This document shows positions 5,982 through 44,040 of a stretch of DNA of 64,000 nucleotides, piece after piece (within the stretch, counting starts at the first letter, position 1; each line of letters opens with the position of its first letter). Origin of the DNA: Desulfovibrio sp. Its GTDB lineage: Bacteria; Desulfobacterota; Desulfovibrionia; Desulfovibrionales; Desulfovibrionaceae. Both the position numbers and the translations under genes were made by a program. The notes beneath the pieces are model-generated. The model was not told the origin of the DNA, made no database searches, and worked only from the letters and a program-made list of their open reading frames with translations. The stretch spans positions 11,610 to 75,609 of the forward strand of contig NZ_JASGDK010000070.1 of the NCBI RefSeq assembly GCF_047607245.1. The letters run 5' to 3'.

Positions 5982-5983
5982 AA

Positions 5984-18527: not shown

Positions 18528-19948
18528 GATTCTTTCCAACACCTGTAATTATTGATGAAAACACGCGCCAAGCGGTCATTGTTGGCTTCGGGATCAAACA
18601 TATGGGCCGCCAGCAGCCTGCCGTTACGGGCAAGGCTGGCTGCCAGGGCTGAATCGTTGGCCAGCAGGGCGATAGCGTTGGCCAGCGCTTCGGCGTCGTG
18701 CTGCGGCACCGCCAATCCGGTTTTACCGTGCCGCACCACCTCTGGCAAAGCGTTGACCGTGGTGCTGACTACGGGCAGGCCATAGGCCAATGCCTCGATA
18801 ACGGTATTGGGGATGCCATCGCGCCGGCCCGACGCATGCACCACGCAGGGCGCGGCAAAAATATCATGCTCTTTGAGGAGCTTGGGCAGCTCATTGTGCG
18901 AAATAAGACCGGGCATGCTCACGCGGGCTTCCAGTCCCAGTTCCTTACGCAAACGGGTCAACTCGGCCTGCATGTAGCCGAGGCCCATCACGGCTCCGCC
19001 GCCGCCCGCCAGAGTGAGGGTAAAGTCCAGGCCACGGTCTTGCAGCAAGCCGCAGGCGCGGAGCAATACGTCAAAGCCCTTGGTAACGTCAAACCGTCCA
19101 AGAGCCAGCAGGCGCACAGGGCGCTTCATGGGAACGGGAGAGGCCGAAGCAGGCACTTCATCCAGGCGCAGAAAAGAAGGATCCGCCTCACTGGAGCAGT
19201 GGGAGCCCGGCGCGTCGAGCGCGCCAGTATGGGCGGCAGCGGCTGTGGGCGTGACCGTTTCGTCTTCCAGTGGCGGCAGGGTCAGCCCGTTATACACCAG
19301 CTCAACTTTGCCCTTGGCCTGCCCACGGTCAAAATTCTCTATCCGCGCCTTGTCCGCGCCGTTGTTGGCACGCACCAGAAAAGCGGCGTCAAGCTTTGCG
19401 CCTAGGTCCGGGTCCGCTGGCTCAAGATTGTCGCCCCTGGCGCATGTGGCAAAGGGAAGCCCGGCGATGCTGCCTGCAACCCAGGCAGCGGTTGCAGTGC
19501 CGCGCGGCCAGGGCGCGTAGATCATATCGATGCCCGCTTCTTTGAAGCGCCGGGCCAGATACACCCCTGCGCAAAAAGCCCAGAGGTTTTCTCCCATTGT
19601 TTCAACGCAGCGCCAACGACGGAACATAGTACGACGGAAGAGCCTTCCCAGGCGTAGCGGGTGCGTGCAGAACTGGCGCAGAACTTCGGCCAAGATGGCA
19701 AAAACTGCTTTTGTGCCCAATGTATGGGTCTGCTGGGCCGCCGTGCGCATTTCAGTGGAGCAGTGGCACAAGTTGGCCCCGTAAAGACTGAACACCGAGA
19801 GCGGAAGGCGCTTTCTGAGCCCTTGTACTTCGCGGAAGATAAAGGGCTGTGTGAACAGGGGGTACCACAGCAACACGCAGGCCACATGAGGCAGCCCAGG
19901 GGCGAATGCCTGCGGGGAAACGGACTCGCTTGTCTTGCTTTCTGTCAT
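18515..19948 (-). CDS. GT4-family (GT-B) glycosyltransferase, paralogue 2
   Basis: C-terminal domain RLLALGRFDVTKGFDVLL...RRDGIPNTVIEALAYGLPVVST...GKTGLAV. The N-terminal half is paralogous to 21071-22417 (VLLWYPLFTQPFIFREV vs VLLWFPLSSETFIFREV). Confidence 0.8.
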   Translation of the reverse strand: MTESKTSESVSPQAFAPGLPHVACVLLWYPLFTQPFIFREVQGLRKRLPLSVFSLYGANLCHCSTEMRTAAQQTHTLGTKAVFAILAEVLRQFCTHPLRLGRLFRRTMFRRWRCVETMGENLWAFCAGVYLARRFKEAGIDMIYAPWPRGTATAAWVAGSIAGLPFATCARGDNLEPADPDLGAKLDAAFLVRANNGADKARIENFDRGQAKGKVELVYNGLTLPPLEDETVTPTAAAAHTGALDAPGSHCSSEADPSFLRLDEVPASASPVPMKRPVRLLALGRFDVTKGFDVLLRACGLLQDRGLDFTLTLAGGGGAVMGLGYMQAELTRLRKELGLEARVSMPGLISHNELPKLLKEHDIFAAPCVVHASGRRDGIPNTVIEALAYGLPVVSTTVNALPEVVRHGKTGLAVPQHDAEALANAIALLANDSALAASLARNGRLLAAHMFDPEANNDRLARVFINNYRCWKESCVE

Positions 19949-20033
19949 AACTCACTCCTGAGCGTCTGCCAGGGGGCAAACTCACAGGTTATATTATTTG
20001 GAGTCGACCATACCGAATTGCACGCGGCGCAAG

Positions 20034-21074
20034 CTAGGGAGCTTCTTGTGGCGGATACGCCCAATCGCCGCATTTCGCGCCGCTGCACTGCCGCAATTGT
20101 GCTGCGCTTTCAGGGGCTTGAGGACCCAAGACTTCCCTCAATTGGTCCATAGTCAGGCTGCGCACTTCCCAGCGGGATGAGAGCCAGTCTGTCCAGGCCA
20201 GTATTTTTTTCATAAGTGTGTCCACAGCGCTGGCATCAGGCAGATGGGGCGCACCGCCCGGCATCATTTCTGAAGAATGCCAGGTGAGAGACAATACCCG
20301 CCCTCCGCGGGCCACGAAAAGTCTGGTCACAGCCTGCATGGCCCACAGAGGATGATAGACGGGCAACAAACTCAACGCCCCCCAGTTCTTGAAGCCTGGC
20401 CGCAAGCCCGGAGCCGTTCTGCGCAGCAGGCCCGGCAAGGGTTGCAAAAGAGGCGTCACGCTAAGGGGAACTTCAAAAATACGCTTTGGCCCAACGGTTA
20501 CCCAATAAGGATTGCACGGGGCGTCAAAGTGATCTGGCCCCGCATGAGGCGTGGCTCCACAATGCAGCGGGCGTACCGAGGCGTCTACCTTGATTCCGGC
20601 CTGGGCCAACAGGGGCCAATGGTTTCTGTGCAGATCCCACCGCCCCATACGAAAAGAAGTCAGGGGCGCGGATTGAAATTCCTGTCCGGCAGCCATGAGT
20701 TTTTCAAGCTTGGCGGCCATAAGAAGGTCGGGCACGGCTGCGGCGGGTACACTGGATGCATTGTCGGCAAGGGCGGCGTCTGCGCCCGGCCCGTCAAGAG
20801 TCAGAGGGGGCGTGTTCCAGTGGTGCAGGTGCGCGCCTATTTCAGCGCCGTGTCTGTCGCGCAGCCCCGCCAATACGCGCCGTGAAGGCTCGTCGGCCAG
20901 CACGCTGTGCGCGCAGAAAAGCGTGGGGCGCACGCCGCGCTCACACAGGGGATCAAGCCGCCCAAGGCTGCCTGTATTGACCGTTGAGAAGCCTCGCCGG
21001 GCATACTGGCCGCCAAACAGCCCTTCTTCTTCCACATCCAGGCTGACAGCAAGATAGAGCGTAGGCCGGCTCAT
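20034..21074 (-). CDS. Polysaccharide-deacetylase-like (CE4/WalW-like) protein
   Basis: LAVSLDVEEEG (Asp/Glu metal motif) and IGAHLHHW (His pair). The ATG at 21074 overlaps the upstream TGA (ATGA). The track start 21149 is over-extended. Confidence 0.6.
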   Translation of the reverse strand: MSRPTLYLAVSLDVEEEGLFGGQYARRGFSTVNTGSLGRLDPLCERGVRPTLFCAHSVLADEPSRRVLAGLRDRHGAEIGAHLHHWNTPPLTLDGPGADAALADNASSVPAAAVPDLLMAAKLEKLMAAGQEFQSAPLTSFRMGRWDLHRNHWPLLAQAGIKVDASVRPLHCGATPHAGPDHFDAPCNPYWVTVGPKRIFEVPLSVTPLLQPLPGLLRRTAPGLRPGFKNWGALSLLPVYHPLWAMQAVTRLFVARGGRVLSLTWHSSEMMPGGAPHLPDASAVDTLMKKILAWTDWLSSRWEVRSLTMDQLREVLGPQAPESAAQLRQCSGAKCGDWAYPPQEAP

Positions 21075-22417
21075 GCTTCCTCTTTTTCCGTGAACACATG
21101 ATCCAAGTGGGAGGATTGCCCTTGCTGCATCCTGGCAGCTCGGGCGCATTCATCCACATACAGATCATAAACCGCCGCGATGTTTCGCGCGGGGTCAAAA
21201 AGCTTTTCAACATGGGCGCGCCCCGCCTCAGCCATTTTCAGGGCAGCATCCCGGTCAGACACCATACGGCGCACGGCATCTGCCAGAGCCCGCGGATCGC
21301 GTTGCGGCACAAGCAGCCCGGTTTCACCGTCAATAACTACCTCGGCTATGCCGCACACATCGGTGGCAATAACTGGCATCCGGTGAGAAAGCGCTTCCAT
21401 GATAACATTGGGGATGCCATCGCGATCTCCGTTAGTGTGCACCACGCTGGGCATGATGAGCATGTCATGGTCCAGCATGAACGCGCAGATCTTGTCGTGA
21501 GGAATAAACCCCGGCATATCGACAACCTGTGTAAGCCCCAGATCGTCCCGCATTTTGACAAGCTTGTGATGCCACCTGCCGTCGCCCACCAGAGTCAGGG
21601 TCACAGGCACGTTTTCACGCCGCAGCCGTGCCATTGCCGTGAGCAATTCGGGAAAGCCCTTGGTGCGCGCAAAGCGTCCCACTGCAAGCAACCTGTAGGG
21701 AGCCTGCATGGGCATGGCGCACTGGCCGCGCGGTCGGAAGGTAAGACTATTGTAGATGGCGTGTACTTTGTTCGTGGCGTCAGGAGGGCAGAACTTGCAC
21801 AGCCACTGTACATTGGTGCGGTTATTGGTGCGGACGAAAAGCGCGTCGCGCGATTTTTCCCGCAACAGACCATCTTCAGGATAAATATCTCCGGCACGCC
21901 CAGTGAAGGCAAAGGGGATGCCCGACATGCGCGAGGCTACCCAGGCTGCAGTTGCCGGCCCATTGGCCCAACCCGCATGGATAAGCTGCACCCCGTCCTG
22001 CCGGCACTGCTCGGCCAGCAGGAATCCCGCCAGAAAACACAAGGTGTTCTCTGCAATAGCCTCAACATTGCGCATACGGCGAAAAAGCCCTTCACGCATG
22101 AGCCGCCACACCGCCCCCGGCTTCTGCCACAAGGCACGCCCGAAGGCAGCAAGGATGCGGCTGAAGGCCTTGATGCCCATGCGGCGGACAGGACCGTCAA
22201 AGGCGTGCATTTCTTCGCTGCACCCCTTGAGATTTTCGCCATACATGCTGTACGCATACACAGGCAGGCCACGCTGTCTGAGTTGTACGACCTCACGAAA
22301 AATAAATGTCTCAGAAGACAATGGAAACCAGAGAAGCACATAGGCGATGACCGGCGGAACACTCTGCCGACCGTTTTCCTTTCCCGCTTCCGTGGCAACG
22401 CCACTGGTTAAAGACAT
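21071..22417 (-). CDS. GT4-family (GT-B) glycosyltransferase, paralogue 1
   Basis: RLLAVGRFARTKGFPELL...DRDGIPNVIMEALSHRMPVIATDVCGIAEVV.DGETGLLV. Confidence 0.8.
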   Translation of the reverse strand: MSLTSGVATEAGKENGRQSVPPVIAYVLLWFPLSSETFIFREVVQLRQRGLPVYAYSMYGENLKGCSEEMHAFDGPVRRMGIKAFSRILAAFGRALWQKPGAVWRLMREGLFRRMRNVEAIAENTLCFLAGFLLAEQCRQDGVQLIHAGWANGPATAAWVASRMSGIPFAFTGRAGDIYPEDGLLREKSRDALFVRTNNRTNVQWLCKFCPPDATNKVHAIYNSLTFRPRGQCAMPMQAPYRLLAVGRFARTKGFPELLTAMARLRRENVPVTLTLVGDGRWHHKLVKMRDDLGLTQVVDMPGFIPHDKICAFMLDHDMLIMPSVVHTNGDRDGIPNVIMEALSHRMPVIATDVCGIAEVVIDGETGLLVPQRDPRALADAVRRMVSDRDAALKMAEAGRAHVEKLFDPARNIAAVYDLYVDECARAARMQQGQSSHLDHVFTEKEEA

Positions 22418-22474: not shown

Positions 22475-23794
22475 TTATTCGCCCAGGTATTCTTCGGCGT
22501 GTTCGCTCTTGTATTTTTCCACAATGGCCTGTGCCTTGGGAATTTCTTCCTTCACGGCATCCAGAGCCTTGCGGATGTGCTCTTCGGTATGGGCGGCAGA
22601 AAGGAAGAAGCGCAGCCTGTCGGTGCCTTCTTTCACTGCCGGGAAGGTAATGGGCATGACATAGATGCCACGCTTGAAGAGCGCGTTGGACAGGAAGCCT
22701 GCAACCATAGGATCGCCCACCATAACAGGCACGATGGCGTAGCCCTGAGCCGCGCCTGTGTCCAGACCGATGCTGGCGGCGTAATCCACAAAGAACCGGG
22801 AAATGCCCTGCAATTTATGCACACGTTCCGGTTCGCGCAGCATAATGTCCAGCGCCTTGTGGCAGGCCACGGCGATCACGGGGGGCATACCCACACTGAA
22901 AACAAAACCCGGCGAACCGTACTTCAGAAATTCCACCAGTTCGTGCTTGCCAGCGATAAACCCGCCGCAACCGCACATGGACTTGGAGAGCGTGCTCATC
23001 CACATATCCACTTCATTGGCGTCAATGCCGAAATATTCGTGCGCGCCACGCCCGGTCTTGCCAAGCACGCCCAAAGAATGGGCTTCGTCAACCAGCAGCA
23101 TGCAGTCGTACTGCTTTTTCAGCTGGATGATGCGGGGCAGATCAGGAATGTTGCCGTCCATGCTGAACAGGCCTTCCGTAACGATAATGGCCCGCTTGTG
23201 TTCGGCGCGCTTGGCCTTGAGCATTTCCTCAAGGGCATCGCAATCGTTATGATTGTACGAGTAGCGCGCGGCGTGCGACAGGCGTGCGCCCTGCACCAGC
23301 GAGTTGTGGGCCAGGCCGTCATGAAAAATGGCGTCGCGGTGGCCGAGCAGAAAGCCGAGGGTGGACACGTTGGTGGCATGCCCGCTCACGTAGACAATGC
23401 AGTCTTCCACGCCATAAAGGTCGGCGAAGGCACGCTCAAGCTCACGGTGCGGCGGGCGCTCGCCGCCCACAAGGCGGCTGGCTCCGGCGGACGTGCCGTA
23501 AACGGTGGCGGCGCTGGTGACGGCCTCGGTTATTTCCGGATGGGCGTTAATGTCCAGATAGTCGTAGGTGGAAAAGTTCAGATATTCCTTGCCGCCAATG
23601 AGTGTGGTAGCCTTGGCTGCACGCTCGTGGCAAAGAAAAAGAGGATTTTCCATCCCCATCTTGGCTCCCATCTCCACAAGCCGGTCAAAGGCGAGCTTGG
23701 AACGCATGCGGCTGAAGCCGCCTGCGGAGCTTTCTGTAGCGGCAGTAGTTGATGCCGCCTCTTGTCCAGCCTGACAGGAATGGTCGTTCTTCAT
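22475..23794 (-). CDS. PLP-dependent alpha-oxoamine synthase (SPT/BioF/KBL/CqsA superfamily acyl-thioester:amino acid C-acyltransferase)
   Basis: Motifs YLNFSTYDYL, GASRLVGGE, SGHATN, SMDGN, VDEAHSLG and STLSKS (PLP Lys271 codon at 22984-22982). AAGAGGA RBS before ATG 23794. Low-complexity 29-aa N-terminal extension. Confidence 0.85.
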   Translation of the reverse strand: MKNDHSCQAGQEAASTTAATESSAGGFSRMRSKLAFDRLVEMGAKMGMENPLFLCHERAAKATTLIGGKEYLNFSTYDYLDINAHPEITEAVTSAATVYGTSAGASRLVGGERPPHRELERAFADLYGVEDCIVYVSGHATNVSTLGFLLGHRDAIFHDGLAHNSLVQGARLSHAARYSYNHNDCDALEEMLKAKRAEHKRAIIVTEGLFSMDGNIPDLPRIIQLKKQYDCMLLVDEAHSLGVLGKTGRGAHEYFGIDANEVDMWMSTLSKSMCGCGGFIAGKHELVEFLKYGSPGFVFSVGMPPVIAVACHKALDIMLREPERVHKLQGISRFFVDYAASIGLDTGAAQGYAIVPVMVGDPMVAGFLSNALFKRGIYVMPITFPAVKEGTDRLRFFLSAAHTEEHIRKALDAVKEEIPKAQAIVEKYKSEHAEEYLGE

Positions 23795-24142
23795 GCCTAA
23801 TCCTCTTAAATTTGTCCAAAAAATGCACCGGCCCGCAGCCCTGCAACAAGCAGCCGGACAGAGGGCGCAACTTTGTAAGGATTCAGTATAGCCAAACCGT
23901 CGAGCTATGGCAAGTGCGTAATATCAAATCCTCATCAACCCGCCACAGCGGCAGCTACTGTGCATTTCAGGGCTTTTACAACCGCCTTTCAACGCAAATG
24001 CGCACGGCGGCATTCCGCTGCCGTGGCCTATTTTCTGCCCGGCTTCTGGACAAGAGAATCGATATACCCTAGAATACCGCCCTTAGCCGATATATGCCGC
24101 TTCGGCCCAATCGATCAACCGCGCGCCGCAGGCCCGAGTTTT

Positions 24143-27100
24143 ATGCAGCAAGACCCTGCCCCAGCATACGGCACTTCGCACGGCAAGCCCTGCGCAACGG
24201 ACAACGCCGTCCTTCAGGACGGACTGCTTGTTGTGTCGCCTCCTTGCGCCATCCTTTCCTGCCCTGCTCCTGAAAATCCGGCCTCTGCCGAATCCCGCGC
24301 TTCTTCAGGCGAAATATGCGCCCAGGCTCTGGTTCGCCAGTGCCTTGACTGGCTCAAGCTTACCGGAAACCCTGGCCCCGTCATGCTCTGGCTCTGCTGG
24401 AACGAGTCCAGCACTCCGGCCCATCTGGCCCAATCCCTGAGTCTTGCTGCGGAAGGTCTGCAAAATCTCTGGCGCATCGGTCCGGTACGCCTGCAGTTTG
24501 AATCCTTCCGCCCCGGCCAGATTCACGAGGCCGAAAAGGTTCTGCGAGCGGCCCTTGATCAAGGCACGGATGCAGCAAAAAGCATTTACCCCTGCATGAC
24601 CAACGAGGCGGCCCGCCCAGATACTATGGGTGTGAGCATGCCGCAGTGCCCCAACTACTATAATTCCGATGCGAATAGAGCGCTGGGCGACGAAGAACCC
24701 ATGCGCCCGCAAGCCGGACGCGTGCCCACCATTCTTTTGCTGGATTTTTTGGCAGATAAAACTCCGAACCTGCAGTGCCAGCCTCTTCTGCTGAGCCTGC
24801 CTGCTCCTACGCCTCCGTGCTGCGACATGCTCAAATGCCGCAAGAATCCACAGCAGGTGACAGAGGAGCCCCGGCCCGAAACCGCGCCAGCCCTCTGGCA
24901 GCCCTGCAACCTTGCAGCCGAAGCAAAGCATATCCAAGCAACTGCTACAGACACCACAAAAATGCCCGATTATCAAAATTTGCCCGAAGAACTTATTCTG
25001 GATGGCGTACGCTACGCTGACCTGCCCCAAGACGGCATTATGTGGCGTATGGGAACCACCAATCCCCTATGGCGGCAAGACCTGCTCTCGCTGCCGCACA
25101 ATCCCGATGCAGCAGCCCTGGCGAGTCTTGAAGGGCGCGGCATCTGGCTGGCCCCCAAGACCGATGCGCCGCCCCTGGCAGTCATGTGCTGCGGCATGGG
25201 CTCGGTCTGGCCGGGCATGGGCCGCGAACTCTACGATAATTTCCCTGTGGCGCGCGCCGCGATGGACCGCATCGCCGCTGTTGCCGATTGGGACATACTT
25301 GGCCTTATGGACGAAAAAGACGTGGAAAAGGTCAGCCCCACACGCTGGCAGTCTCCTTACACGTTTATGCTTGAGTTTGCGCAGTGGAGCATACTTTCTT
25401 CACTGGGTCTGCAGCCCTCGCTCTTCTGCGGGCACAGTCTGGGCGAGCTGATTGCCCTGTGCTTCAGCGGCATCTACACGCCCGAGGTGGCCTGGCATAT
25501 TCTTGATACCCGCGCCATCCACATGGCCGAACTGGAAGCTGCTGCCACCCGTGAAATGGGCATGATGGCCGTACACGCCAACGCTGAAATCATTGATGAA
25601 GCATGCGCTGCATGGCCCGCCCTCTACGTTTCCAACTACAATACTCCGCAACAATTTATTCTGAGCGGACCGCGCGAAGTATTGATGGAAGCCCGCAAAA
25701 GCCTGCGCAAGCGCCGTATACCTGCCATCGTGCTCAACCTGAATCTGGCCTTCCATCATCCAAGCATGCGTGTGTTGCGCGACCTTTCGCTGCGCCGCCT
25801 CAACGCGCTTGAGATGCGCGCTCCCCGCCACCCCATGCTGAGCGGCACCACCACGGATTTTTATCCTGACGACCAGCCATCCATCTGCCTGCAAATCGCC
25901 GACCTGGATGAAAATTCCGTCCGCTGGACAGAATGCGTGCACACGACATGGCGCAGAGACGGCATCCGTCACTTTCTGGAGCTGGGACCGCAGGATACAC
26001 TGTGCAGTCTTGTCAGCGACACGGAACCCCGGGCCCTTTGCCTGCCTGCGGGACGCAAGGGCAAGGAAGTGGAAGGCATGCGTCAGACATGCGCCCGCCT
26101 CTATGCGCTGGGACACTTGCGCAAAAATTCTATCCGCACACGCATCGCCGATGTTCGCGGCGGCAAAGATGCTGCCGCAGCAGCGCGTATGCCGCTTCCG
26201 CATTGTGGGCTTGTGCCTGTGGATTCCCCCGACTGCGGCGCAGGCTGCGGGACATGTTCCACTTCTTCCTGCGGCATAACCGCCACAGAAACCTCGCCGG
26301 TAAAAACAGATGCCGTGGTTTCTGCCCCTGTTTCCGGCGCAGACGCTGCGTCCGCCCCTGTGAAAGCTACGGCTTCCGTATCATCCGCAGCCGCCTTGCG
26401 CGTGGTGCTGGATGTTCTGGCCCGCGCCTGCGGCCGCCCCGTGGAAGAACTGCGGCCAGACCTTGACCTGCGCTACGATCTTGCCCTGCGCTCCAGCCGT
26501 TTTCCCCTTATTATTCAGGAAGTGGAAAAAGCGCTGGATATTACCGTCAACTTTGAAGATCTGCTGCAGGTTTCCACAGTGGGCGATCTCGCTCGCGTTC
26601 TGGGCGCAGTCAATTTTGGCGAAACGGCCGATTCCGAAAAATCCGGGGCGGCAAGTCAGGTGGCAGCTCGCCAGACAGCGCTGGTTCATGCTTGCGCGCC
26701 GCTGTGCCGCTTCAGCCCCATGCGGGGGAGTGCGCAAAGCGAACACACGGCAAAGGCCGGCAGTGGGGGGGCGACACATGCCCTGCTGCCGCTGCCTCTG
26801 GACCCCTGCGGTCAGGGCTTGCCCATCCGGCGAGGGGATATTCTGGCCCTTCTGTTTTTTGAACCTGATCTGCTGCCCGCTCTCATGAGCGGCCTGGCAC
26901 CACTTGGATGCGTGCTGGCCGTGCCGCGCGCCCAGGTTGAAGCATGCGCCCCGCTGGCCAAGGCGGGCAGCCGCATTGTGCCCCTGAATATTGACCTACA
27001 CGCCCCTCGGAATGCCGCAGAGGCACGTTCGTTGGCCGAAGATACCAGCGCGGCCCTGAGCGATCTGGCTAAAAAAGAGGGCAAGGTTGACGGCCTGCTT

Positions 27101-28528
27101 TTTGTGCCTGCCGCACGTTCCGAAAAAGGAGAAAAGGAAACCGGCCCGGCACTTTCAGCCGCCGCCTTTGCCTCCGCAGACATGCCCGAGTTGCTGAGCG
27201 CGGCCATGCGAGTCACCGTGCCGCACGGGCTGCGCTATGCCTGCCTGTGCAGTCTGCTGCAACCCACGGCTGAAAACCTGCGCGGCGATGGCCCGCTGGA
27301 AAAGCGCCTTGAGGAACTGGGGCAGGAAGCTGGCGTTGCCACCCGCGCCATCCGGCTTCTGGAAAAAAATCTTCGCGCAGGACTTAACGACTGGGGCGAT
27401 ATGCTGGCCCGTGAACTTTTACGCGGCACCGCCTGCCAGGTGCTGTGGGTACGGCCCACGGCCCTGCCCGCTTTTGCAGCGCCCGCTGACCAGGCAGACA
27501 GCTGCTCCCACGCATCTGCTGCGCAAGAGAAGAAGGGGCAAGGGCTCATCATCACGGAAAAACCGCGCTTCTATCCCCTGGTTTTTTCCGATCCGTATCC
27601 GCCTTACCGGGCCACTTCCACGCTTTTTCAGGGCTGCTGCCATTACTCGCGGTTTGCCGATACCGATCTGGCCCTTCATGGCGGCCAACCTTGTAATACC
27701 CTTGACGGTACGCCCTGGTTACCTCCAAGCCGTGCCCTGGCGGCCTTGCTTGAAGCCTCAAGCTTATGGCTTCCCTGGCTAACAGCCACTGGTTTTTCAG
27801 ACCTGCGGTTTTATGATCTTCCCCAGCTGCCGCCCGGCATCACCCGCGAATGCAGGGTCGCTATGGAGGCAGAGCCCTGGCTCATGCAGGACGGCGTAAT
27901 GACGCGCCAGTGCCGCGGCACTCTGGACGTACGCGGACTTTCAGCCAATGGCAGACATCTTGAGCGCTATGCGCCCGTGGCTGAAGGCATGACCATTCTG
28001 GCCGCGGCCAACGGGCAGGTGCCGCCCCTGTGGCCTGATGAAAATGAACCCCCGCGTGCGGAACAAATTCAACAGACCTTAGATACCGATCTTTTTTATA
28101 ATTCTGTAGGCTTTGGCGCGCCCTGGCGCATGCTACGCGAGTTTACCGTTCTGCCTAATCACAGATATGCCGCGCTGTTGGACCATTCGCATACAAGCAT
28201 TGCCCCCGAGGGCAATAAAGGCTATACTGACGTACTGCATGTGGTGGAGGGAATGGCGCAGGCCGCGTGGATGGCAATTGCCCAGGAAGCCGGAGAGGCA
28301 GAGGCGATTGCCGCTGTCATACGAAACTGGCATCTGCAGGCTGCGGGATTCATACGTTTTGGGGGCGAAAGAGGCAAAGGACCGTGGCTCATAAGGATGA
28401 GACGTTCTTGGTCTGCCCCAAATCTGTTGCGCTTTGACGGCCAGGCCGTTGACGAACGCGGACGCGTCTTTCTTACTCTCCATCATCTAGAGTTTAACCG
28501 GCGGGACACCGGAGCCGCCGCGCTTTAG
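24143..28528 (+). CDS. Multidomain PKS-like protein without ketosynthase: unknown N-domain, acyltransferase (AT), carrier-protein-like domain, unknown middle region, double-hotdog dehydratase-like domain
   Basis: AT: GMGSVWPGMG...GHSLGE (Ser codon 25436-25438)...LAFHHP. ACP-like: LDLRYDLALRSSRFPLIIQEVE (26492-26494). DH-like: LALHGGQPCNTLDGTPWLPPS and YTDVLHVVEGMAQ. The start is uncertain: ATG 24143 is preferred, and the track's GTG 23960 adds a basic, non-protein-like leader. Confidence 0.8.
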   Translation: MQQDPAPAYGTSHGKPCATDNAVLQDGLLVVSPPCAILSCPAPENPASAESRASSGEICAQALVRQCLDWLKLTGNPGPVMLWLCWNESSTPAHLAQSLSLAAEGLQNLWRIGPVRLQFESFRPGQIHEAEKVLRAALDQGTDAAKSIYPCMTNEAARPDTMGVSMPQCPNYYNSDANRALGDEEPMRPQAGRVPTILLLDFLADKTPNLQCQPLLLSLPAPTPPCCDMLKCRKNPQQVTEEPRPETAPALWQPCNLAAEAKHIQATATDTTKMPDYQNLPEELILDGVRYADLPQDGIMWRMGTTNPLWRQDLLSLPHNPDAAALASLEGRGIWLAPKTDAPPLAVMCCGMGSVWPGMGRELYDNFPVARAAMDRIAAVADWDILGLMDEKDVEKVSPTRWQSPYTFMLEFAQWSILSSLGLQPSLFCGHSLGELIALCFSGIYTPEVAWHILDTRAIHMAELEAAATREMGMMAVHANAEIIDEACAAWPALYVSNYNTPQQFILSGPREVLMEARKSLRKRRIPAIVLNLNLAFHHPSMRVLRDLSLRRLNALEMRAPRHPMLSGTTTDFYPDDQPSICLQIADLDENSVRWTECVHTTWRRDGIRHFLELGPQDTLCSLVSDTEPRALCLPAGRKGKEVEGMRQTCARLYALGHLRKNSIRTRIADVRGGKDAAAAARMPLPHCGLVPVDSPDCGAGCGTCSTSSCGITATETSPVKTDAVVSAPVSGADAASAPVKATASVSSAAALRVVLDVLARACGRPVEELRPDLDLRYDLALRSSRFPLIIQEVEKALDITVNFEDLLQVSTVGDLARVLGAVNFGETADSEKSGAASQVAARQTALVHACAPLCRFSPMRGSAQSEHTAKAGSGGATHALLPLPLDPCGQGLPIRRGDILALLFFEPDLLPALMSGLAPLGCVLAVPRAQVEACAPLAKAGSRIVPLNIDLHAPRNAAEARSLAEDTSAALSDLAKKEGKVDGLLFVPAARSEKGEKETGPALSAAAFASADMPELLSAAMRVTVPHGLRYACLCSLLQPTAENLRGDGPLEKRLEELGQEAGVATRAIRLLEKNLRAGLNDWGDMLARELLRGTACQVLWVRPTALPAFAAPADQADSCSHASAAQEKKGQGLIITEKPRFYPLVFSDPYPPYRATSTLFQGCCHYSRFADTDLALHGGQPCNTLDGTPWLPPSRALAALLEASSLWLPWLTATGFSDLRFYDLPQLPPGITRECRVAMEAEPWLMQDGVMTRQCRGTLDVRGLSANGRHLERYAPVAEGMTILAAANGQVPPLWPDENEPPRAEQIQQTLDTDLFYNSVGFGAPWRMLREFTVLPNHRYAALLDHSHTSIAPEGNKGYTDVLHVVEGMAQAAWMAIAQEAGEAEAIAAVIRNWHLQAAGFIRFGGERGKGPWLIRMRRSWSAPNLLRFDGQAVDERGRVFLTLHHLEFNRRDTGAAAL

Positions 28529-28596: not shown

Positions 28597-30063
28597 ATGC
28601 CGCATAACACACGTCCTCTCTTTTCAGCGCGGTCATATCTGCCGCTGCTGCTCGTTATGACCCTGTTTTTCTCAGCATGCGCCTCAAACAAGGCGGGACT
28701 GAAATCTCCGGAACTTCCGGCCAAGCACTGGCTGGAAGAGGCACCCGGCGTTCCGGTAGAAAACAAGGCCAAACTTGAAGCGGCAGTGCCCAACCTGTAT
28801 GATCCCAGCAAGGTTTTCACCTACGAGGACTGCGTCTTTCTGACCATTCAGCAGTCGCCCCTTCTGGTCAACAGCGCGGTAGATCTGGAGATCAAGCGCG
28901 TAGCCCTTACCGACGCCGTGTGGAAGTACCTGCCCGAGCCCCGTATGACCATGCAGGTCACCAACAACCTTACGCGCAACAACATGGACCACAAGGACAC
29001 CCCTGGCGACTACGGGCGTACCAAGTTCACCGTGGGTTTCTATGCGGCCTTCCCCAATCCTGTGGCCACCTATTTTGAGCACCAGGTGCAAAAGGCAATG
29101 GTCAATCTGGCCATCTCCACGCACCGCAAGGCTGTGGGCGAAGCCATCTACAAGATCGCCCAGGCCTATCTGCAGCTGCAGGCGCAGAAAAAAATCGTCA
29201 AGGTTCAAAAAGAACTGCTGCCCATCGGCAAAGAACTCATAGCCTACTGGCAGCAGGTGGAGTCCGTAGACGGCCGCCAGGGGGTTTCCCTCAACTTGGC
29301 CATGCAGCACCAGCGTGAGCTTGAGCTGATGGTAGAGCAGACCAAGATGAAGGAAGTCATGCAGCTCACCCAGCTGAAAATACTCGCGGGTGTGGACCCG
29401 CAGCACAAGCTGGACGTAGACACGTCAAGCGCTGACGAAATTCTGAAAGGCTTCAATGGCCGCAGCCTCAAGTGGGACGACCGCTGGAATACCACTGAAG
29501 ACGATTTGCTTTTGCGCGGCCAGATCAAGCTGGGTGACTACAATATCATGGTCGCCTGGGCTCAGTATCTTCCAAACATGAGCATCGCCGTCAACAACAG
29601 CCCGCCAGCGGGCCAGTACCAGCCTGCCAGCGGCAGTGAAGACACCTTCCTGCATCTGAACTTTGACTTTCCCCTGCTGGACTGGGGACGCCGTTACCGT
29701 GGCGTGCAGACGGCACGCATGATGAAGGCGCAGGCTTTCCACGAAATGGCCCGCAAGCGCACAGATTATTCCAACAAGTGGCTGCAGGCGGAACAGAACG
29801 TGGCACTGGCTGAAACCGAGCTCAAAATCGCGAAAACGCGTTTTGACACTGCGGCCATGCAGTACAAGGAAGCCCACATTTCCTTCAACGAAGGCATTGC
29901 GGATCTGCCCAACGTAGCCGACAGGCAGGAAGCTATGGTGCAGGCCCAGATCGCTTTTATTCGGGCAGAACTGACCTGTGAACTGGCTCAGCTTGAATGG
30001 ATGTACATTTCCACCTCGCTTCAAGAACGTTTCCTCGGCATGCCCGCCAAGGAGGTGCTGTAA
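28597..30063 (+). CDS. Outer-membrane efflux protein (TolC/OprM-like) lipoprotein
   Basis: Signal peptide and lipobox (LLLVMTLFFSAC). Size and repeated helical/beta layout fit outer-membrane factor proteins, with long heptad-rich stretches. Confidence 0.7.
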   Translation: MPHNTRPLFSARSYLPLLLVMTLFFSACASNKAGLKSPELPAKHWLEEAPGVPVENKAKLEAAVPNLYDPSKVFTYEDCVFLTIQQSPLLVNSAVDLEIKRVALTDAVWKYLPEPRMTMQVTNNLTRNNMDHKDTPGDYGRTKFTVGFYAAFPNPVATYFEHQVQKAMVNLAISTHRKAVGEAIYKIAQAYLQLQAQKKIVKVQKELLPIGKELIAYWQQVESVDGRQGVSLNLAMQHQRELELMVEQTKMKEVMQLTQLKILAGVDPQHKLDVDTSSADEILKGFNGRSLKWDDRWNTTEDDLLLRGQIKLGDYNIMVAWAQYLPNMSIAVNNSPPAGQYQPASGSEDTFLHLNFDFPLLDWGRRYRGVQTARMMKAQAFHEMARKRTDYSNKWLQAEQNVALAETELKIAKTRFDTAAMQYKEAHISFNEGIADLPNVADRQEAMVQAQIAFIRAELTCELAQLEWMYISTSLQERFLGMPAKEVL

Positions 30064-31010
30064 TGGCGCCCTATTCACGCATCGCCTCTTCGGCCCGCAA
30101 GTGCGCGCTAGGCATTGCCGTGGCATTTCTGGCCAGTCTGACTCTTGCCACCGCTGGCTTTGCGGCCGACAGCGGAAAAATTGGCGTGACCATTCTTACA
30201 GGCAAAGTCGTGACGACAGTCACCCGGGCCGTGCCCATGCCCTTTAGCGGCGTGGTGGACTCAGTACTGGTCAAACCCGGCGAAGCAGTTGAAGAAGGCG
30301 CGCCTCTCATGCGCTACCACCTATACGAAGATGCGGAACGCGCCCTGCAACGGGAAGTCATGCAAGGCCCCAGCACAGAAGGCCTCAACGGGCAGGTGCT
30401 GGACCTTGAGCGCAGACTTGCTGAAACCATTGCCCAGCGTAACAAGGCCCGTCAGCTTGCAGCTTCGGGCCTGGGCTCGCGTCAGGCTTCCGGACGTCTT
30501 GAAGAAGACGTGAGCTCCCTGCAACGCCGCATTGAGCTCACGCGTACTACCATAAAGAAAGCTGAAAACAGCTTTGCCATCCGCCTCAAGGAACTGAGCA
30601 GCTATTTCGGACAGGAAATCAAGGAAGGGGAAATTCTGCCAGAAACCCTGACCCTGACCTCGCCTCTCAAGGGCTATGTGCTATCGCTGGATGCCACGCT
30701 CAACCCCGACACTCTGCTTCCGGCGGGCAGCGTTCCCATCAGAGTGGGGCAGCTTGACCCTGTGCTTATTCAGGTGCCCGTCTACGAAGCCGAAGTCAGC
30801 GGCATCAGCGAGGGCGACAAGGTTGCGGTAGAAATCCCCTCTCTCAACAACAAGGTCTTTACGGGCAAGGTTACAGAAATATCTTGGGTTTCCAGCGATA
30901 TGAGCGTGTCCAACCCTTCCTACTACACTGTGGAAATCACCGTGCCCAACCCGGATCTGGAGCTTAAACCCGGCTTCAAGGCTGTTGTGCGTTTCGGGGG
31001 CGGCAGGTAA
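30063..31010 (+). CDS. Periplasmic adaptor / membrane-fusion protein (HlyD family)
   Basis: The start overlaps the upstream stop (TAATG). N-terminal anchor/signal, a split lipoyl-like domain (GVVDSVLVKPGEAVEEGAPLM ... LTSPLKGYVLSL), a central coiled coil and a C-terminal beta-barrel (GFKAVVRF). Confidence 0.75.
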   Translation: MAPYSRIASSARKCALGIAVAFLASLTLATAGFAADSGKIGVTILTGKVVTTVTRAVPMPFSGVVDSVLVKPGEAVEEGAPLMRYHLYEDAERALQREVMQGPSTEGLNGQVLDLERRLAETIAQRNKARQLAASGLGSRQASGRLEEDVSSLQRRIELTRTTIKKAENSFAIRLKELSSYFGQEIKEGEILPETLTLTSPLKGYVLSLDATLNPDTLLPAGSVPIRVGQLDPVLIQVPVYEAEVSGISEGDKVAVEIPSLNNKVFTGKVTEISWVSSDMSVSNPSYYTVEITVPNPDLELKPGFKAVVRFGGGR

Positions 31011-31019
31011 AGCCCCCGC

Positions 31020-32435
31020 ATGAAGCTCAAGAGCATTCCCCGCAGGCTCGGTTACATTCTAGGCGCGCAGTGGACGCGCGACCTGGCCTGGACAGCCTTT
31101 ACCATTCTGCTTGCCCGCCGCAGCCCGGATATTATGGGGCAGGTGGTCTTGGCCCTCACTTTCGGCTATCTGGTTAAGACCATTGCTGATGTGGGTCTCA
31201 ATGATTTTCTGTTGTCTACCTTTGCCAGGCGGGAAGGCCGGCCACGGGCTTTGCTGGGCGAAGTAACATGGCTCAAGCTTACCGTGCTGGTGCTGGCTCT
31301 GGCTGTAACATGGCTGGTAACCGGATGGCAGAATTACAGCCCTGAGCTGCGCCTTATCGTGCTGTGTATTGCCGCAGGGCTTGGCCTTGACGGGGTGAGT
31401 GACTCATTTTTCGCGCTATGCCAGGCTCGAGGCCGACAGGATGTGGAAATGCGCATCCGGGTGCCCTCTGCCCTCATCGGCATAGGCTTCGGTATCGCCT
31501 GCGTAGTTATGGGCGCGCCGCCCATTATCATCGCACTTTACAAACCCATTGAATCTATACTGTGCATCATTTTTGCCCTCACAGCGCTTGGCCGCAACCC
31601 GCTGGCGGGTGTTGGCCGATCTGGCATGCTCGATCTGGCGCGGCAAATGAAGCATGGCCTTATCTTTACCTGCATGGCCGCCTGCGCCATGTTCTACAAC
31701 AAAATCAACGTCATTTTTCTCAAGCAGTACGGCGGCAACGCCGATGTGGGCGGGTACGGAGTAGCCTGGGAGACCGTGGAAGGGCTTTCGGTTCTGGTAT
31801 CAAGCGCACTTCTGGGCAAGGTTATTTTTCCTCTGCTGGCAAAATTCTGGCAGCAGGATAAAAATGCCTTCCGGCAGCTTGCTGGCCAGACTGCCCGGTC
31901 TTTGTGGGCCGCCTCCTTGCCCATCATCTTTCTCATTTGTGTGGAAAGTGACCGGTTTCTGCCTTTTATTTACGGCCCAAGCTATGAGAGCGCCGTTCGG
32001 GCGCAGCAATTGCTGACGCCTTGCCTGGCTACTGCCTTTCTGCACAACCTTGCAGCCTATGCTATGATAGGCATGCGCCGCCATCGCCTTCTGCTGCTTT
32101 TCTACGTCAGCGGGCTTATTCTTAATATTATCTGCTGCCTGACGCTTATCCCGGCCATGCCTCTTGAAGGTGCGGCGCTGTCTCTTACCATCACCAAGGT
32201 TTGGGTTGCCATCCTTACTGTGGGCTTTTTTCAGTGGACAACCCGCCCGATGAGTGCGGCACAATGGCTGCTCATGCTGGCTACCGCTGGAGTAAGCATT
32301 GCGTTGTGGTGGGGCACAGGCAAAGTTGCCCCTCGTGAAGTTGCTGAAGGCGTGGGGCTTCTTCCTCTGCTGGCCTTGTTCTGGTGGTGGCGGCCTCCCC
32401 CGCCATTTGAAAAAAAGACGCCGCAAGCTCAATAG
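31020..32435 (+). CDS. MOP-superfamily flippase (Wzx / polysaccharide biosynthesis protein-like, ~12 or more TM)
   Basis: A polytopic membrane protein of 471 aa whose N-terminal region (GAQWTRDLAWTAFTILLARRSPDIMGQV) resembles oligosaccharide flippases. It starts 9 nt after the adaptor stop. Confidence 0.7.
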   Translation: MKLKSIPRRLGYILGAQWTRDLAWTAFTILLARRSPDIMGQVVLALTFGYLVKTIADVGLNDFLLSTFARREGRPRALLGEVTWLKLTVLVLALAVTWLVTGWQNYSPELRLIVLCIAAGLGLDGVSDSFFALCQARGRQDVEMRIRVPSALIGIGFGIACVVMGAPPIIIALYKPIESILCIIFALTALGRNPLAGVGRSGMLDLARQMKHGLIFTCMAACAMFYNKINVIFLKQYGGNADVGGYGVAWETVEGLSVLVSSALLGKVIFPLLAKFWQQDKNAFRQLAGQTARSLWAASLPIIFLICVESDRFLPFIYGPSYESAVRAQQLLTPCLATAFLHNLAAYAMIGMRRHRLLLLFYVSGLILNIICCLTLIPAMPLEGAALSLTITKVWVAILTVGFFQWTTRPMSAAQWLLMLATAGVSIALWWGTGKVAPREVAEGVGLLPLLALFWWWRPPPPFEKKTPQAQ

Positions 32436-33553: not shown

Positions 33554-33603
33554 ACAAAATCAGCTTGCCTCAGTATGGGGCACAATCGTGCACAAGGATT
33601 TTC

Positions 33604-34602: not shown

Positions 34603-35090
34603 TGCGCTCGCAACGCCCCCCAACCCGGCTTTTTTCGGGCATGTTCAGCGCTTTCTGGGTAGTTGCCCTTCTGGTTGCGACACTGTCCGGCTTGGCCCAT
34701 CTGCCAGTGGCTGTTCGTTACAGCCTGATCAACATAGATAATCAGGCAACCGTATGGCACTACTATGCAGTAGCCTTACTGCTCATGCTTGAGACATATG
34801 CCGTCATTATCTGGTGGGCACAGGGCAGAGGGATGTTTTCCTTTACACGCTGCGGAACTATCCGCACGACGCTGCTTGCTATACTGTCTGTTACCGGGCT
34901 GATTCTTATGCTGCATAACCTGCCTGATGTCGCTGTTTTTGGCCGTGCATACTCGGCCATAAAGCTTTGTCACCTTTTCAGTGGCCTGCTGCTTGTGCCC
35001 ATTCTTCTGGTGCAGTGTTGCCTGCGGCTTGCCGGAAAACCCAGTGCATTGAAAACCTGCACAGCTAAAAAAACTCATCCCCCGGCGTAA
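34599..35090 (+). CDS. Four-helix integral membrane protein, candidate di-haem cytochrome b (FdnI/HybB-small-type) partner
   Basis: ATGA overlap with the FeS gene. Four hydrophobic segments each carry one His (LAHLP, VWHYY, LMLHNL, LCHLF). Confidence 0.55.
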   Translation: MMRSQRPPTRLFSGMFSAFWVVALLVATLSGLAHLPVAVRYSLINIDNQATVWHYYAVALLLMLETYAVIIWWAQGRGMFSFTRCGTIRTTLLAILSVTGLILMLHNLPDVAVFGRAYSAIKLCHLFSGLLLVPILLVQCCLRLAGKPSALKTCTAKKTHPPA

Positions 35091-44002: not shown

Positions 44003-44040
44003 CTTGCATTCTCCGTAAAAGGCGGCAATAGTGCAGCACT

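Follow-up and report, generated by a model that had tools for sequence, protein, structure and literature searches.

Type I synthase-like proteins are paired with an enzyme of the BioF/Kbl/SPT family in several described systems: RkpA/RkpG and WcbR/WcbT of capsule loci, and synthases terminated by an alpha-oxoamine synthase (AOS), among them SxtA, PigH/RedL and Fum1 plus Fum8. RkpG and WcbT are AOS-family enzymes. The Rkp and Wcb pairs lie, as does the pair described here, in a surface-glycoconjugate and export locus (PMC3908369, PMC7858667), a likeness of architecture and context. Unlike the present protein, RkpA and WcbR have a ketosynthase (KS) and form complete modules of canonical domain order, and their export is of the KpsMT type, whereas here it is represented by a flippase, a membrane-fusion protein (MFP) and an OEP.

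An unusual domain order, with the carrier (ACP) ahead of ketoreductase (KR) and dehydratase (DH), has been described for PfaA-type subunits of PUFA or 'secondary lipid' synthases (PMC3098273), which run KS-MAT-ACPn-KR with a PKS-type DH behind. The gene studied here shares this order and, as judged below, the malonyl-type acyltransferase (AT). The PfaA model was the second-best NCBIfam match (274 bits) of P0182, an intact relative, and it also matched the AT region of the window (the whole 64-kb stretch of DNA that was analysed); some of the KS homologues nearest to P0182 are fusions with a PfaD-type ER domain (PF03060). However, the window protein scored 87 bits against the PfaA model (cut-off 1010 bits), lacks a KS, carries one ACP where PfaA subunits have 4-9, retains its KR only in dead form, and is not accompanied by PfaB, PfaC, PfaD or PfaE partners. 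None of 20 described secondary-lipid cluster types combines an AOS with the export trio. Enediyne synthases (PKSE) have the order KS-AT-ACP-KR-DH-PPTase; being iterative single polypeptides with the AT-ACP-KR-DH order they resemble our gene by domain order alone, for it has no KS, no PPTase domain, a dead KR and no enediyne accessory genes.

Bacteria make sphingolipid and sulfonolipid head groups with serine palmitoyltransferase or cysteate acyltransferase, some of them with a dedicated ACP. There as here, the substrate expected for the AOS-family enzyme is an acyl-carrier thioester. In those pathways a free ACP is loaded by a ligase, whereas the window carrier is a PKS-relic domain that would be loaded by the AT; glycosyltransferases adjoin here, and ceramide synthase or reductase genes were not seen at the window locus. 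The heterocyst glycolipid system comprises PKS-like Hgl synthases, a glycosyltransferase and the DevBCA-TolC exporter. The logic of a PKS-derived lipid that is glycosylated and then exported by an MFP and a TolC-like OEP appears to be shared, and the window MFP weakly matched the DevB family, but here a MOP-family flippase replaces the ABC transporter, and an AOS accompanies a synthase that has no KS.

Integrity and domain composition of the gene

The mechanical ORF extends over 23960-28528. The ATG at 24143 (MQQDPAPA) is the start common to the 13 closest homologues in the sequence comparison, and a promoter-like site lies upstream of it, downstream of the upstream GTG (Table 1). An earlier note, based on the same DNA, had described a single megaprotein of about 1460 aa and had named a frameshift-split ORF as an outcome that would overturn its reading. 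The ORF is intact, and because full-length homologues (1395-1486 aa, 62-91% identity) occur in many independent assemblies, a frameshift or sequencing fusion of conventional genes was ruled out. When the whole protein was compared with Pfam, Acyl_transf_1 and PP-binding were detected and no further domains.

Table 1. Features of the locus; positions refer to the 64-kb window
Feature	Position	Strand	Evidence
AsnB-like amidotransferase	16599-18542	-	Pfam, NCBIfam
GT4	18515-19948	-	Pfam, NCBIfam
371-aa soluble protein	20034-21149	-	co-conserved upstream gene
Second GT4	21071-22417	-	Pfam, NCBIfam
AOS (BioF/Kbl/SPT family), divergent	22475-23794	-	Pfam, NCBIfam; below every curated cut-off
Promoter-like site TGGACA-17-TAGAAT	24047-24075	+	consensus scan, 10/12 matches; pattern match only
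Whole KS-less PKS-derived gene, 1461 aa (N-extension, linker, AT, ACP, dead KR, DH)	24143-28528	+	single ORF
N-terminal extension, aa 1-275, lineage-specific	24143-24967	+	closest relatives only; coding
KS-to-AT linker remnant, aa 276-344 (LILDGVRYA...WR...NPLWRQ), beta-rich subdomain	24968-25174	+	family-wide conservation, P0182 homology
AT, aa 345-660	25175-26122	+	Pfam PF00698, Foldseek, conservation
ACP, aa 745-830, putative phosphopantetheine Ser784	26375-26632	+	Pfam PF00550, conservation
Pseudo-KR, aa ~855-1125	26705-27517	+	AF2, profile, hhalign
PKS-type double-hotdog dehydratase-fold domain, aa ~1140-1455	27560-28507	+	AF2, Foldseek, hhalign
OEP/TolC-like	28597-30063	+	Pfam, NCBIfam
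MFP	29997-31010	+	Pfam, NCBIfam
Wzx-like MOP flippase	31020-32435	+	Pfam, NCBIfam

Acyltransferase and carrier domains

Both domains proposed in the earlier note, the AT from its GHSLG and LAFHH motifs and the carrier from DLALRSS, were borne out. PF00698 (Acyl_transf_1) matched aa 349-627 with E 5e-30, and Foldseek returned PKS AT and FabD structures (E 1e-19 to 1e-23). The catalytic residues are Ser432 in GHSLGE (codon 25436-25438), Arg457 (25511-25513) and His538 in LAFHH (25754-25756); GHSLGE, TR and AFH are each found in 85 of 85 family members. An Arg of the FabD Arg117 type marks AT substrates that are carboxylated, and the AT keeps its equivalent. The motif xAFH has been used as a signature of malonyl-type ATs (PMC3908369). 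Judged from its sequence, the AT is of the malonyl type.

PF00550 (PP-binding) matched the carrier over aa 754-819 with E 1.8e-7; codon 26492-26494 specifies Ser784 of DLALRSS. The L-R-S residues occur in all 85 members, the LRSS motif being invariant, and (L/I/M)RSS is also present in the KS-containing relatives P0182, P0191 and P0200. The residue that precedes the putative phosphopantetheine serine is Arg783 and not Asp. A PPTase gene was not found in the 64-kb window. With all catalytic residues kept in 85/85, the AT and the carrier are, by residue conservation, the most strongly constrained parts of the protein.

The N-terminal region and the absent ketosynthase

The first ~340 aa had been described as carrying no recognisable motif, and a KS signature as missing. 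The second statement agrees with all comparisons: Pfam gave no match for aa 1-343 at E<=10, and the N-terminal profile matched neither PDB sequences nor the KS of P0182. The first statement holds for the extension, which had no matches and is missing from most of the ~1150-aa family members, but not for the linker, of which ~65 aa are kept across the whole family. Homology to P0182 begins at this linker, at P0182 aa 497, immediately past the KS; the linker was modelled confidently by AF2, and with it the structural match of the AT to PKS ATs that bear a linker becomes longer. This segment is a remnant of the KS-to-AT linker. The extension is coding as far as its substitution pattern tells, since the five species compared contain no stops and show 1.7-3.9 times more differences at third than at second codon positions.

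A cryptic N-terminal KS, which the earlier note had itself named as an outcome that would make the protein an ordinary type I PKS module, is effectively refuted, as is a sequencing or frameshift artefact; nothing was found in support of either. Only 275 aa precede the linker as against ~420 aa for a KS, the stretch is absent from most members and resembles neither Pfam KS models nor PDB sequences nor the P0182 KS, and independent assemblies carry full-length homologues. In complete genomes (L012) the AOS gene lies only ~340 bp upstream, so there is no space for a KS there. A KS gene was found neither in the 64-kb window nor, at 57 related loci, within ~8 kb. Since the KS is absent, the protein cannot extend chains unaided.

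The degenerate ketoreductase and the dehydratase-fold domain

The region between carrier and DH had been called Rossmann-like, devoid of a Gly-rich loop and unassignable. Its fold and the missing loop were found as stated, but it can now be assigned. AF2 predicted a seven-strand alpha/beta structure of Rossmann-like pattern, the best PDB match of the profile was the SDR 2jah (E 1e-3), and hhalign aligned the region with the true KR of P0195 (probability 97.4%, E 9e-12). Compared with that KR, SGGGRGIT is substituted and the Tyr of YAAAN is absent. The region is a dead KR, without glycine loop or catalytic Tyr, and is deleted in ~860-aa family members.

The C-terminal ~320 aa were predicted to form two hotdog repeats (AF2 pLDDT 90), in agreement with the earlier assignment of the last ~310 aa to a PKS dehydratase. 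The nearest solved structures are the curacin DHs, CurJ (3kg8, E 4.6e-14, TM 0.70) and CurF (TM 0.77); over CurJ, CurF, CurK, Rif and MAS-like DHs Foldseek gave E 1e-11 to 5e-14 and TM 0.62-0.77, with 0.70-0.77 for the curacin enzymes. The top PDB match of the sequence profile was again the CurJ DH, weak at E 0.23, and hhalign with the PS-DH-bearing C-terminus of P0182 gave a probability of 99.4%. On these models the domain is structurally a PKS double-hotdog dehydratase. His1179 (codon 27677-27679) lies ahead of the central helix, and the (E/D)xxxQ motif of the second helix, with Glu1369 (28247-28249), aligns with the LVDSCFQ region of CurJ, which holds the catalytic Asp. The window DH differs from the curacin enzymes (9-16% identity) in having Glu for Asp, FY..G.G..WR in place of GYxYGPxF and a longer His-Pro spacing; the HxxxGxxxxP motif read earlier was mistaken, the actual spacing being H-x14-P and not H-x8-P.

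In the window family the DH His is not universal, and a different set of residues is invariant. The canonical His is substituted in 18 of the 85 members, mostly by Cys, and hhalign found no aligned His in the KS-bearing P0182. Ten residues of the domain are invariant across the 85 members. Seven non-canonical residues are invariant (Ser1169, Asp1220, Arg1235, Glu1236, Cys1257, Arg1271 and Tyr1361). Because of the substituted His and these seven residues the selected role of the domain may not be dehydration. The His/acid pair is nevertheless present in most members (in members with Ala at the acid position, a Glu usually stands one helix turn further on), and its retention suggests that a 3-hydroxyacyl substrate still exists.

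Family distribution and ancestry

The family comprises ~100 clusters among 1.84 billion representatives, all from Desulfovibrio or Desulfovibrionaceae where the species was found, and 57 species-level genomes carry an intact copy. Evolution is much faster in the dead KR and the DH (median identity 43% and 38%) than in the AOS (81%) and the flippase (75%). Relatives detected through the C-terminal (Y) domain, P0182, P0191 and P0200, have the composition KS-AT-ACP-KR-DH with the KS Cys/His/His intact, and P0195 and P0211 are AT-ACP-KR-DH proteins with a true KR. In a rough NJ tree the KS-bearing forms fall just outside the KS-less family. As its homologies indicate, the protein derives from an iterative type I synthase, ordered KS-AT-ACP-KR-DH in the PfaA/enediyne manner, and has lost the KS; the synthase still occurs in intact form beside the same AOS, OEP and MFP genes.

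Conserved neighbours

The upstream block (16599-22417) is syntenic across Desulfovibrio species, and downstream the OEP, MFP and flippase genes are present at all 45 evaluable loci. An AOS gene adjoins the KS-less gene in 40 of 46 evaluable species-level loci (87%), six having no adjacent AOS. The best PDB matches of the AOS were BioF/KBL, KBL and SPT (E 1e-70 to 1e-61, SPT at 1e-61), and cysteate acyltransferase was matched at 9e-52; against the SPT model it scored 290 bits (curated cut-off 640). At the P0182 locus the same two genes, OEP and MFP, follow downstream, and an AOS 73% identical to that of the window occupies the same divergent position. The AOS therefore predates the loss of the KS and does not look like its substitute; the suggestion of the earlier note that it may supply the condensing activity in trans is not supported in that form. 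The AOS is most simply the chain-releasing enzyme, an ancestral off-loading partner. Because of the 73% identity and the 67-99% identity among AOSs of KS-less species, its acyl substrate probably did not change radically after KS loss. The wider description as a loading and carrier scaffold remains a fair one without the AOS as KS substitute, since there is no KS, the AT and carrier are constrained and the AOS is conserved.

A possible pathway and its alternatives

The explanation that fits best overall, to which we give an even chance, is a scaffold that combines malonyl loading, a chain supplied in trans, release by the AOS, decoration and export. The AT would move malonyl from CoA onto the phosphopantetheine arm of Ser784. 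In the version that we prefer, though slightly short of even confidence, the housekeeping FAS II would supply the chain by condensing an acyl chain onto malonyl-ACP and reducing the 3-keto group, and the fatty chain would pass to the dedicated carrier, where the resident DH domain would yield a 2-enoyl thioester. Release would fall to the AOS, which would join the acyl group to an amino acid in a PLP-dependent Claisen condensation, presumably as it did for the ancestral synthase; the product would be a sphingoid-like base, namely a long-chain alpha-amino ketone. It would be modified by the AsnB-like amidotransferase and both GT4 enzymes, and the flippase, MFP and OEP would carry it to the cell surface or outside. 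Supply of a chain in trans, as against no chain, is favoured by the similarity of the AOS between KS-bearing and KS-less loci and by the retained DH His/acid pair. Points against the scheme are the DH His substituted in 18 members and missing from P0182, the seven invariant non-canonical DH residues, the fast divergence of the dead KR and the DH, the six loci with no adjacent AOS, the Arg before Ser784 and the want of a PPTase gene in the window. With no KS in the window or near the 57 loci, the source of chain extension can only be inferred, as can the product and the DH activity; a product, lipid or phenotype for the gene was not found in the literature. The conserved locus points to a pathway, not described before, for an exported amino-lipid or glycolipid.

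It is rather unlikely that, as in the reading of the earlier note, the AOS is the sole C-C bond former and no elongation occurs. The AOS would condense an amino acid with the malonyl on the carrier, perhaps amidated to malonamyl by the AsnB-like enzyme, and the product would be small, a beta-keto-gamma-amino acid or amino ketone. AsnB-type amidation of a malonyl starter is known (OxyD), no KS is nearby, the AT is invariant and apparently of the malonyl type, and the AOS and AsnB genes are co-conserved and directly adjacent in L064. However, an AOS that already stood beside an intact KS-bearing synthase was not recruited to replace the KS, a DH with a mostly intact His/acid pair would go unexplained, and the export genes and glycosyltransferases are more in keeping with a lipid-anchored product than with a small polar molecule.

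That the carrier acyl group bypasses the AOS and is passed to an acceptor of the envelope, such as a polysaccharide, that the flippase, MFP and OEP handle, much as with the carrier proteins of exopolysaccharide loci, we consider distinctly improbable. The export genes are more tightly linked than the AOS (45/45 against 40/46), and AsnB and the GT4 enzymes are similar to families from EPS loci (TIGR03108, 592 bits; EpsE-like GT4), but the AT is the only acyl-transfer enzyme of the locus, a priming glycosyltransferase, Wzy, Wza and Wzc are all missing from it, and an AOS gene adjoins at 87% of loci and at those of ancestral type. A decaying relic, an inert scaffold or a gene being lost, without catalytic role, would account for the lost KS, the dead and sometimes deleted KR and the fast divergence of the pseudo-KR and DH domains. 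This is very improbable in view of 57 genomes with an intact gene, the unbroken conservation of AT and carrier catalytic residues (85/85), the ten invariant DH-domain residues and the coding-type substitution pattern that persists even in the N-extension.

Integrity and modular organization of the gene

Full-length homologues of the protein (62-91% identity) are encoded in many independent assemblies and in complete genomes, and therefore the possibility that the reading frame is a frameshift or fusion artefact was ruled out. The mechanical ORF extends further upstream than the gene (see the table), and the ATG at 24143 (MQQDPAPA) is the start common to the 13 closest homologues. A promoter-like site was predicted between an upstream GTG and this ATG. 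In public annotation the product is described only as 'acyltransferase domain-containing protein'. Local phmmer comparison with 120 homologues showed that the family is modular (see the table).

Domains of the protein and features of the window and of a related locus (nucleotide positions are those of the window unless a locus is named)
Feature	Position	Remarks
Mechanical ORF	23960-28528 (+)	
Gene studied	24143-28528 (+)	1461 aa
Promoter-like site, predicted	24047-24075	
N-terminal extension	~275 aa	closest relatives only (phmmer, 120 homologues)
Conserved core	from ~aa 276	phmmer, 120 homologues
AT	aa 345-660	present in every homologue (phmmer, 120 homologues)
Carrier	aa 733-830	present in every homologue (phmmer, 120 homologues)
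Middle region	aa ~845-1130	absent in ~860-aa members (phmmer, 120 homologues)
C-terminal domain	aa 1138-1455	present in every homologue (phmmer, 120 homologues)
AsnB-like amidotransferase, GT4, 371-aa protein, GT4, BioF/Kbl/SPT-family AOS	upstream of gene, opposite strand	Pfam/NCBIfam
371-aa soluble protein	20034-21149 (-)	between the GT4 genes
AOS	22475-23794 (-)	
OEP, MFP, Wzx-like flippase	28597-32435 (+)	downstream of gene, same strand (Pfam/NCBIfam)
4Fe-4S dicluster protein and 163-aa protein	33565-35090 (+)	after the flippase
Sugar-nucleotide-like genes	2852-8649 (-)	
ORF antisense to AsnB	16470-18404 (+)	
ORF antisense to EF-G	37366-39483 (+)	
ORF antisense to ValRS	41237-44161 (+)	
Fluoride riboswitch	47672-47730 (+)	Rfam RF01734
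P0182 gene	L065:1334-6682	Logan SRR23967709

Acyltransferase and carrier domains

Only two parts of the protein were recognized by Pfam, an acyltransferase (AT) domain (Acyl_transf_1, PF00698, aa 349-627, E 5e-30) and a carrier domain (PP-binding, PF00550, aa 754-819, E 1.8e-7). The AT contains the GHSxG serine, the catalytic histidine and the carboxylate-binding arginine of an elongation module. These residues (Ser432, His538 and Arg457) are kept in 85/85 members of the aligned family lacking a ketosynthase (KS), and GHSLGE, the arginine of TR and AFH are invariant. The AT has the fold of PKS AT and FabD structures. Foldseek matches of an AF2 model of aa 280-1461 built from the 85-sequence alignment (pLDDT 86, pTM 0.84) were mostly PKS ATs that include the linker subdomain between KS and AT, for instance SalAT2 (6iyo) and the CurL KS-AT (4mz0). 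Since this 1182-aa model gave only AT-dominated matches, aa 840-1461 were modelled separately. The xAFH motif, which is typical of malonyl-type ATs (PMC3908369), and the conserved arginine favour malonyl as the group that the AT would load onto Ser784.

The carrier match lies above the gathering cut-off (31.7 vs 20.8 bits), and a serine is located at the start of helix II. This residue, Ser784, is invariant in the 85 members and aligns by hand with the position of AcpP Ser36. The attachment motif is L-R-S-S instead of the canonical (D/H/N)S(L/I), and L-R-S, including Arg783, is also invariant in the 85 members. The same (L/I/M)RSS motif is found in the intact KS-bearing relatives and is thus a clade trait of working synthases, not a mark of decay, which argues for L-R-S-S being the functional attachment motif of the putative carrier. 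An Arg-Ser attachment motif is unusual enough to be of enzymological interest. Both AT and carrier are under strong constraint. The residues pointed out in the earlier note were confirmed: Ser432 (25436-25438) and Ser784 of DLALRSS (26492-26494), preceded by Arg783, lie at the stated codons, and His538 of the LAFHH motif is encoded at 25754-25756.

Absence of a ketosynthase and the N-terminal region

A KS domain with the Cys-His-His triad, which is part of a type I PKS or FAS elongation module, was not detected in the window protein. Pfam found no KS at E<=10, and the three pieces outside AT and carrier had no Pfam match of any kind even at this threshold. A profile of the 275-aa N-terminal extension matched nothing among PDB sequences, and hhalign comparison with the KS of P0182, an intact KS-AT-ACP-KR-DH relative, gave no match (probability 0.1%). 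A cryptic KS in aa 1-275 was ruled out by these searches, which also bear out the absence of a KS claimed in the earlier note. With tblastn, neither the window nor any of 57 related loci yielded a KS gene. There was no sign of a split-off stand-alone KS in Desulfovibrio among the proteins matched by the P0182 KS query: all were PKS-type KS proteins with <=50% identity, and the few matches with a source name came from other phyla, none from Desulfovibrio. A KS unlinked to the locus may still exist in these genomes.

Residues 275-870 align with aa 497-1047 of P0182 (47% identity). Because this alignment begins directly after the KS of P0182, aa 276-344 correspond to the KS-to-AT linker. In five species the coding sequence of the 275-aa extension contained no stops, and its third codon positions differed 1.7-3.9x more often than the second ones. 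This substitution pattern and the lack of stops ruled out that the extension is an untranslated leader.

The middle region

The decisive evidence for the identity of the middle region was supplied by the relatives. A profile of this region matched the ketoreductase (KR) of P0195, a distant relative of the AT-ACP-KR-DH type, with a probability of 97.4% (hhalign, E 9e-12). In this alignment FFEPDLLP of the window protein stands opposite SGGGRGIT of P0195, and the tyrosine of YAAAN falls in a gap. The best PDB match of the profile was the SDR 2jah (E 1e-3), and in this alignment too the window protein has other residues in place of the Gly-rich loop. The AF2 model of aa 840-1461 shows a seven-strand alpha/beta pattern whose order of strands and helices fits an SDR. 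The region thus has a Rossmann fold homologous to KR, and the Gly-rich NADPH loop and the catalytic tyrosine of PKS KRs are absent from the window protein. Pfam KR and adh_short did not match, and the only invariant residues are one Pro and one Asp. Judged from its sequence, the middle region is a dead ketoreductase. Because DH matches crowded out anything specific to the middle domain when aa 840-1461 were searched with Foldseek, this assignment rests on the profile comparisons. The earlier note had rightly described the region as Rossmann-like without a Gly-rich loop; the two regions that it left unassignable can now be identified as the dead KR and, in aa 276-344, the KS-AT linker.

The C-terminal dehydratase-fold domain

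In the model of aa 840-1461 (pLDDT 90, pTM 0.91) the C-terminal half consists of two hotdog repeats. Foldseek matched this double-hotdog fold to more than 40 PKS dehydratase (DH) chains (E 1e-11 to 5e-14, TM 0.62-0.77), among them CurJ (3kg8, E 4.6e-14, TM 0.70), CurF (TM 0.77), RifDH10 and MAS-like and PpsC domains. At the sequence level the best PDB match of the domain profile was again the CurJ DH, weakly (E 0.23); FY..G.G..WR was aligned opposite the GYxYGPxF region and VVEGMAQ opposite the catalytic-Asp helix. The hotdog model, the Foldseek matches and the CurJ match confirm the DH-like double hotdog proposed in the earlier note. Pfam PS-DH did not match the window protein.

Compared with the canonical HxxxGxxxxP and DxxxQ/H motifs, the window protein has His1179 with H-x14-P spacing and Glu1369-x3-Gln1373. 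In the family alignment the canonical histidine is present in 67/85 members and replaced by cysteine in 14/85, which belong to one subclade. The acid is found in 74 of the 85. Ala takes its place in 11 members, which form another subclade, and in nine of these there is a Glu four positions further on that looks like a relocated catalytic acid. Invariant in all 85 are Ser1169, Asp1220, Arg1235, Glu1236, Cys1257, Arg1271 and Tyr1361. Since the His/acid pair is partly replaced in the family, and P0182 has no His at the aligned position, dehydratase activity of the window protein is plausible, not established.

Relatives and domain loss

When 1.84 billion representative proteins were searched with the C-terminal domain, only 104 clusters emerged. 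The most distant ones were P0182, P0191 and P0200, with the order KS-AT-ACP-KR-DH, and P0195 and P0211, with the order AT-ACP-KR-DH and a true KR recognized by Pfam. P0182 and P0191 have kept the Cys, His and His of the KS. In a rough neighbour-joining tree of the AT region, calculated without bootstrap and with more distant KS-AT synthases as outgroups, the KS-bearing proteins were placed just outside the KS-less family. The window protein is derived from a complete synthase. The relatives form a stepwise series of domain loss, from KS-AT-ACP-KR-DH to AT-ACP-KR-DH, AT-ACP-deadKR-DH and finally AT-ACP-DH, which shows what remains of use in a megasynthase once the ketosynthase is gone.

The order ACP-KR-DH also occurs in enediyne PKSE. 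It is the only feature that the window protein has in common with PfaA-type synthases (PMC3098273): with the PfaA model (TIGR02813) it scored 87 bits against a cut-off of 1010, and it lacks a KS, contains a single ACP instead of tandem ones and carries a dead KR. For P0182, PfaA was the second-best NCBIfam model, far under its cut-off.

Of the proteins encoded in the related loci, the AOS is closest to its counterpart in the window (median identity 81%), followed by the flippase (75%), AT-ACP (66%), the dead KR (43%) and the DH (38%). In loci L001-L062 the last two diverge much faster than the AOS, flippase, AsnB and OEP genes (70-81%).

Conserved neighbours

A separate scan with AT-specific patterns, in which each species was represented by a single genome, recovered 57 related loci. 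All named sources were Desulfovibrio or Desulfovibrionaceae, with a few generic-named records, a restriction that is partly a property of the family-specific AT patterns used. The locus is kept in at least 57 species-level genomes, including D. piger and D. desulfuricans.

The partnership with the alpha-oxoamine synthase (AOS) and the export genes is conserved: the AOS adjoins the gene in 40 of 46 evaluable loci and the export trio is present in 45/45. The AOS belongs to the BioF/Kbl/SPT/ALAS family of fold-type I PLP enzymes (PF00155, E 1.5e-46; PDB matches, E 1e-70). It scored 347 bits with BioF, 323 with Kbl and 290 with SPT, all under the equivalog cut-offs. In the P0182 locus an AOS 73% identical to that of the window lies divergently upstream and OEP-MFP genes downstream; the P0195 locus has AsnB-AOS upstream and OEP-MFP-flippase downstream. 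The P0182-type locus is likely to be the ancestral form. Pfam matched neither of the next two genes in the P0182 locus (555 and 395 aa).

In the window and in all evaluable loci among L001-L062 and L064, the TolC-like OEP and the MFP are always followed by the Wzx-like flippase of the MOP family. No ABC, RND or MFS pump accompanies the trio. If the three proteins work jointly, they would make up a tripartite exporter of an unusual kind.

The 371-aa protein is kept in the locus in most species and had no match in Pfam, NCBIfam or PDB sequences; its N-terminus (LAVSLDVEEEG) presumably recalls, loosely, polysaccharide-deacetylase-like proteins. Synteny in many relatives (21 loci) extends to the 4Fe-4S dicluster protein and the 163-aa protein, which has no Pfam match; the two may be part of the locus or just conserved neighbours.

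Possible function

By analogy, the window protein would play the part that the loading and carrier half has in an AOS-terminated PKS. FAS II enzymes, working on the malonyl-carrier, would supply the chain in trans. We favour this reading, tentatively and at somewhat less than an even chance, because the AOS of KS-bearing loci differs from those of KS-less loci no more than the latter differ from each other, and because the DH His/acid pair is mostly retained. The AOS would condense the acyl group on the carrier with an amino acid and so release it, and the product would then be decorated and exported.

Direct condensation of malonyl or of malonamyl by the AOS appears unlikely. Delivery of the acyl group to an envelope glycan is quite improbable. 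The window protein is very unlikely to be inert, and a cryptic KS or an artefact is scarcely conceivable.

Gut and host-associated Desulfovibrio may possess an undescribed pathway. There the PKS relic (AT-ACP-deadKR-DH) would capture or present an acyl chain, and the PLP-dependent AOS would be the only dedicated C-C bond-former; the head group that it makes, that of an amino-lipid or a glycolipid, would be new. The MOP flippase, MFP and TolC-like channel would together be a tripartite envelope exporter of a novel type. For the DH-fold domain, given its invariant Ser/Asp/Arg-Glu/Cys/Arg/Tyr, a role other than that of a dehydratase may have evolved. Taken as a whole this scheme is doubtful. No description of the family or the locus was found in the literature on Desulfovibrio combined with alpha-oxoamine synthase, ACP, PKS or SPT. 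D. piger and D. desulfuricans are common human-gut sulfate reducers, and the product, if it is an exported amino-lipid or glycolipid, would be a candidate host-interaction molecule, for which Bacteroides sphingolipids offer an analogy. The interest of the system lies in its wide distribution in Desulfovibrio, gut residents included, in the natural domain-loss series, in the carrier motif and in the flippase-MFP-OEP exporter.

Other features of the window

Elsewhere the window contains housekeeping or unrelated genes. The three long antisense ORFs (644-974 aa) are probably not genes but shadow ORFs, a frequent feature of GC-rich DNA; the two opposite EF-G and ValRS have no Pfam match. The fluoride riboswitch (53 bits vs gathering 34) is unrelated to the finding. 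The sugar-nucleotide-like genes encode a PALP enzyme, a 326-aa ORF, a hexapeptide acyltransferase, a CMP-sugar-type cytidylyltransferase and an NAD-dependent epimerase/dehydratase, and may constitute another surface-glycan module.
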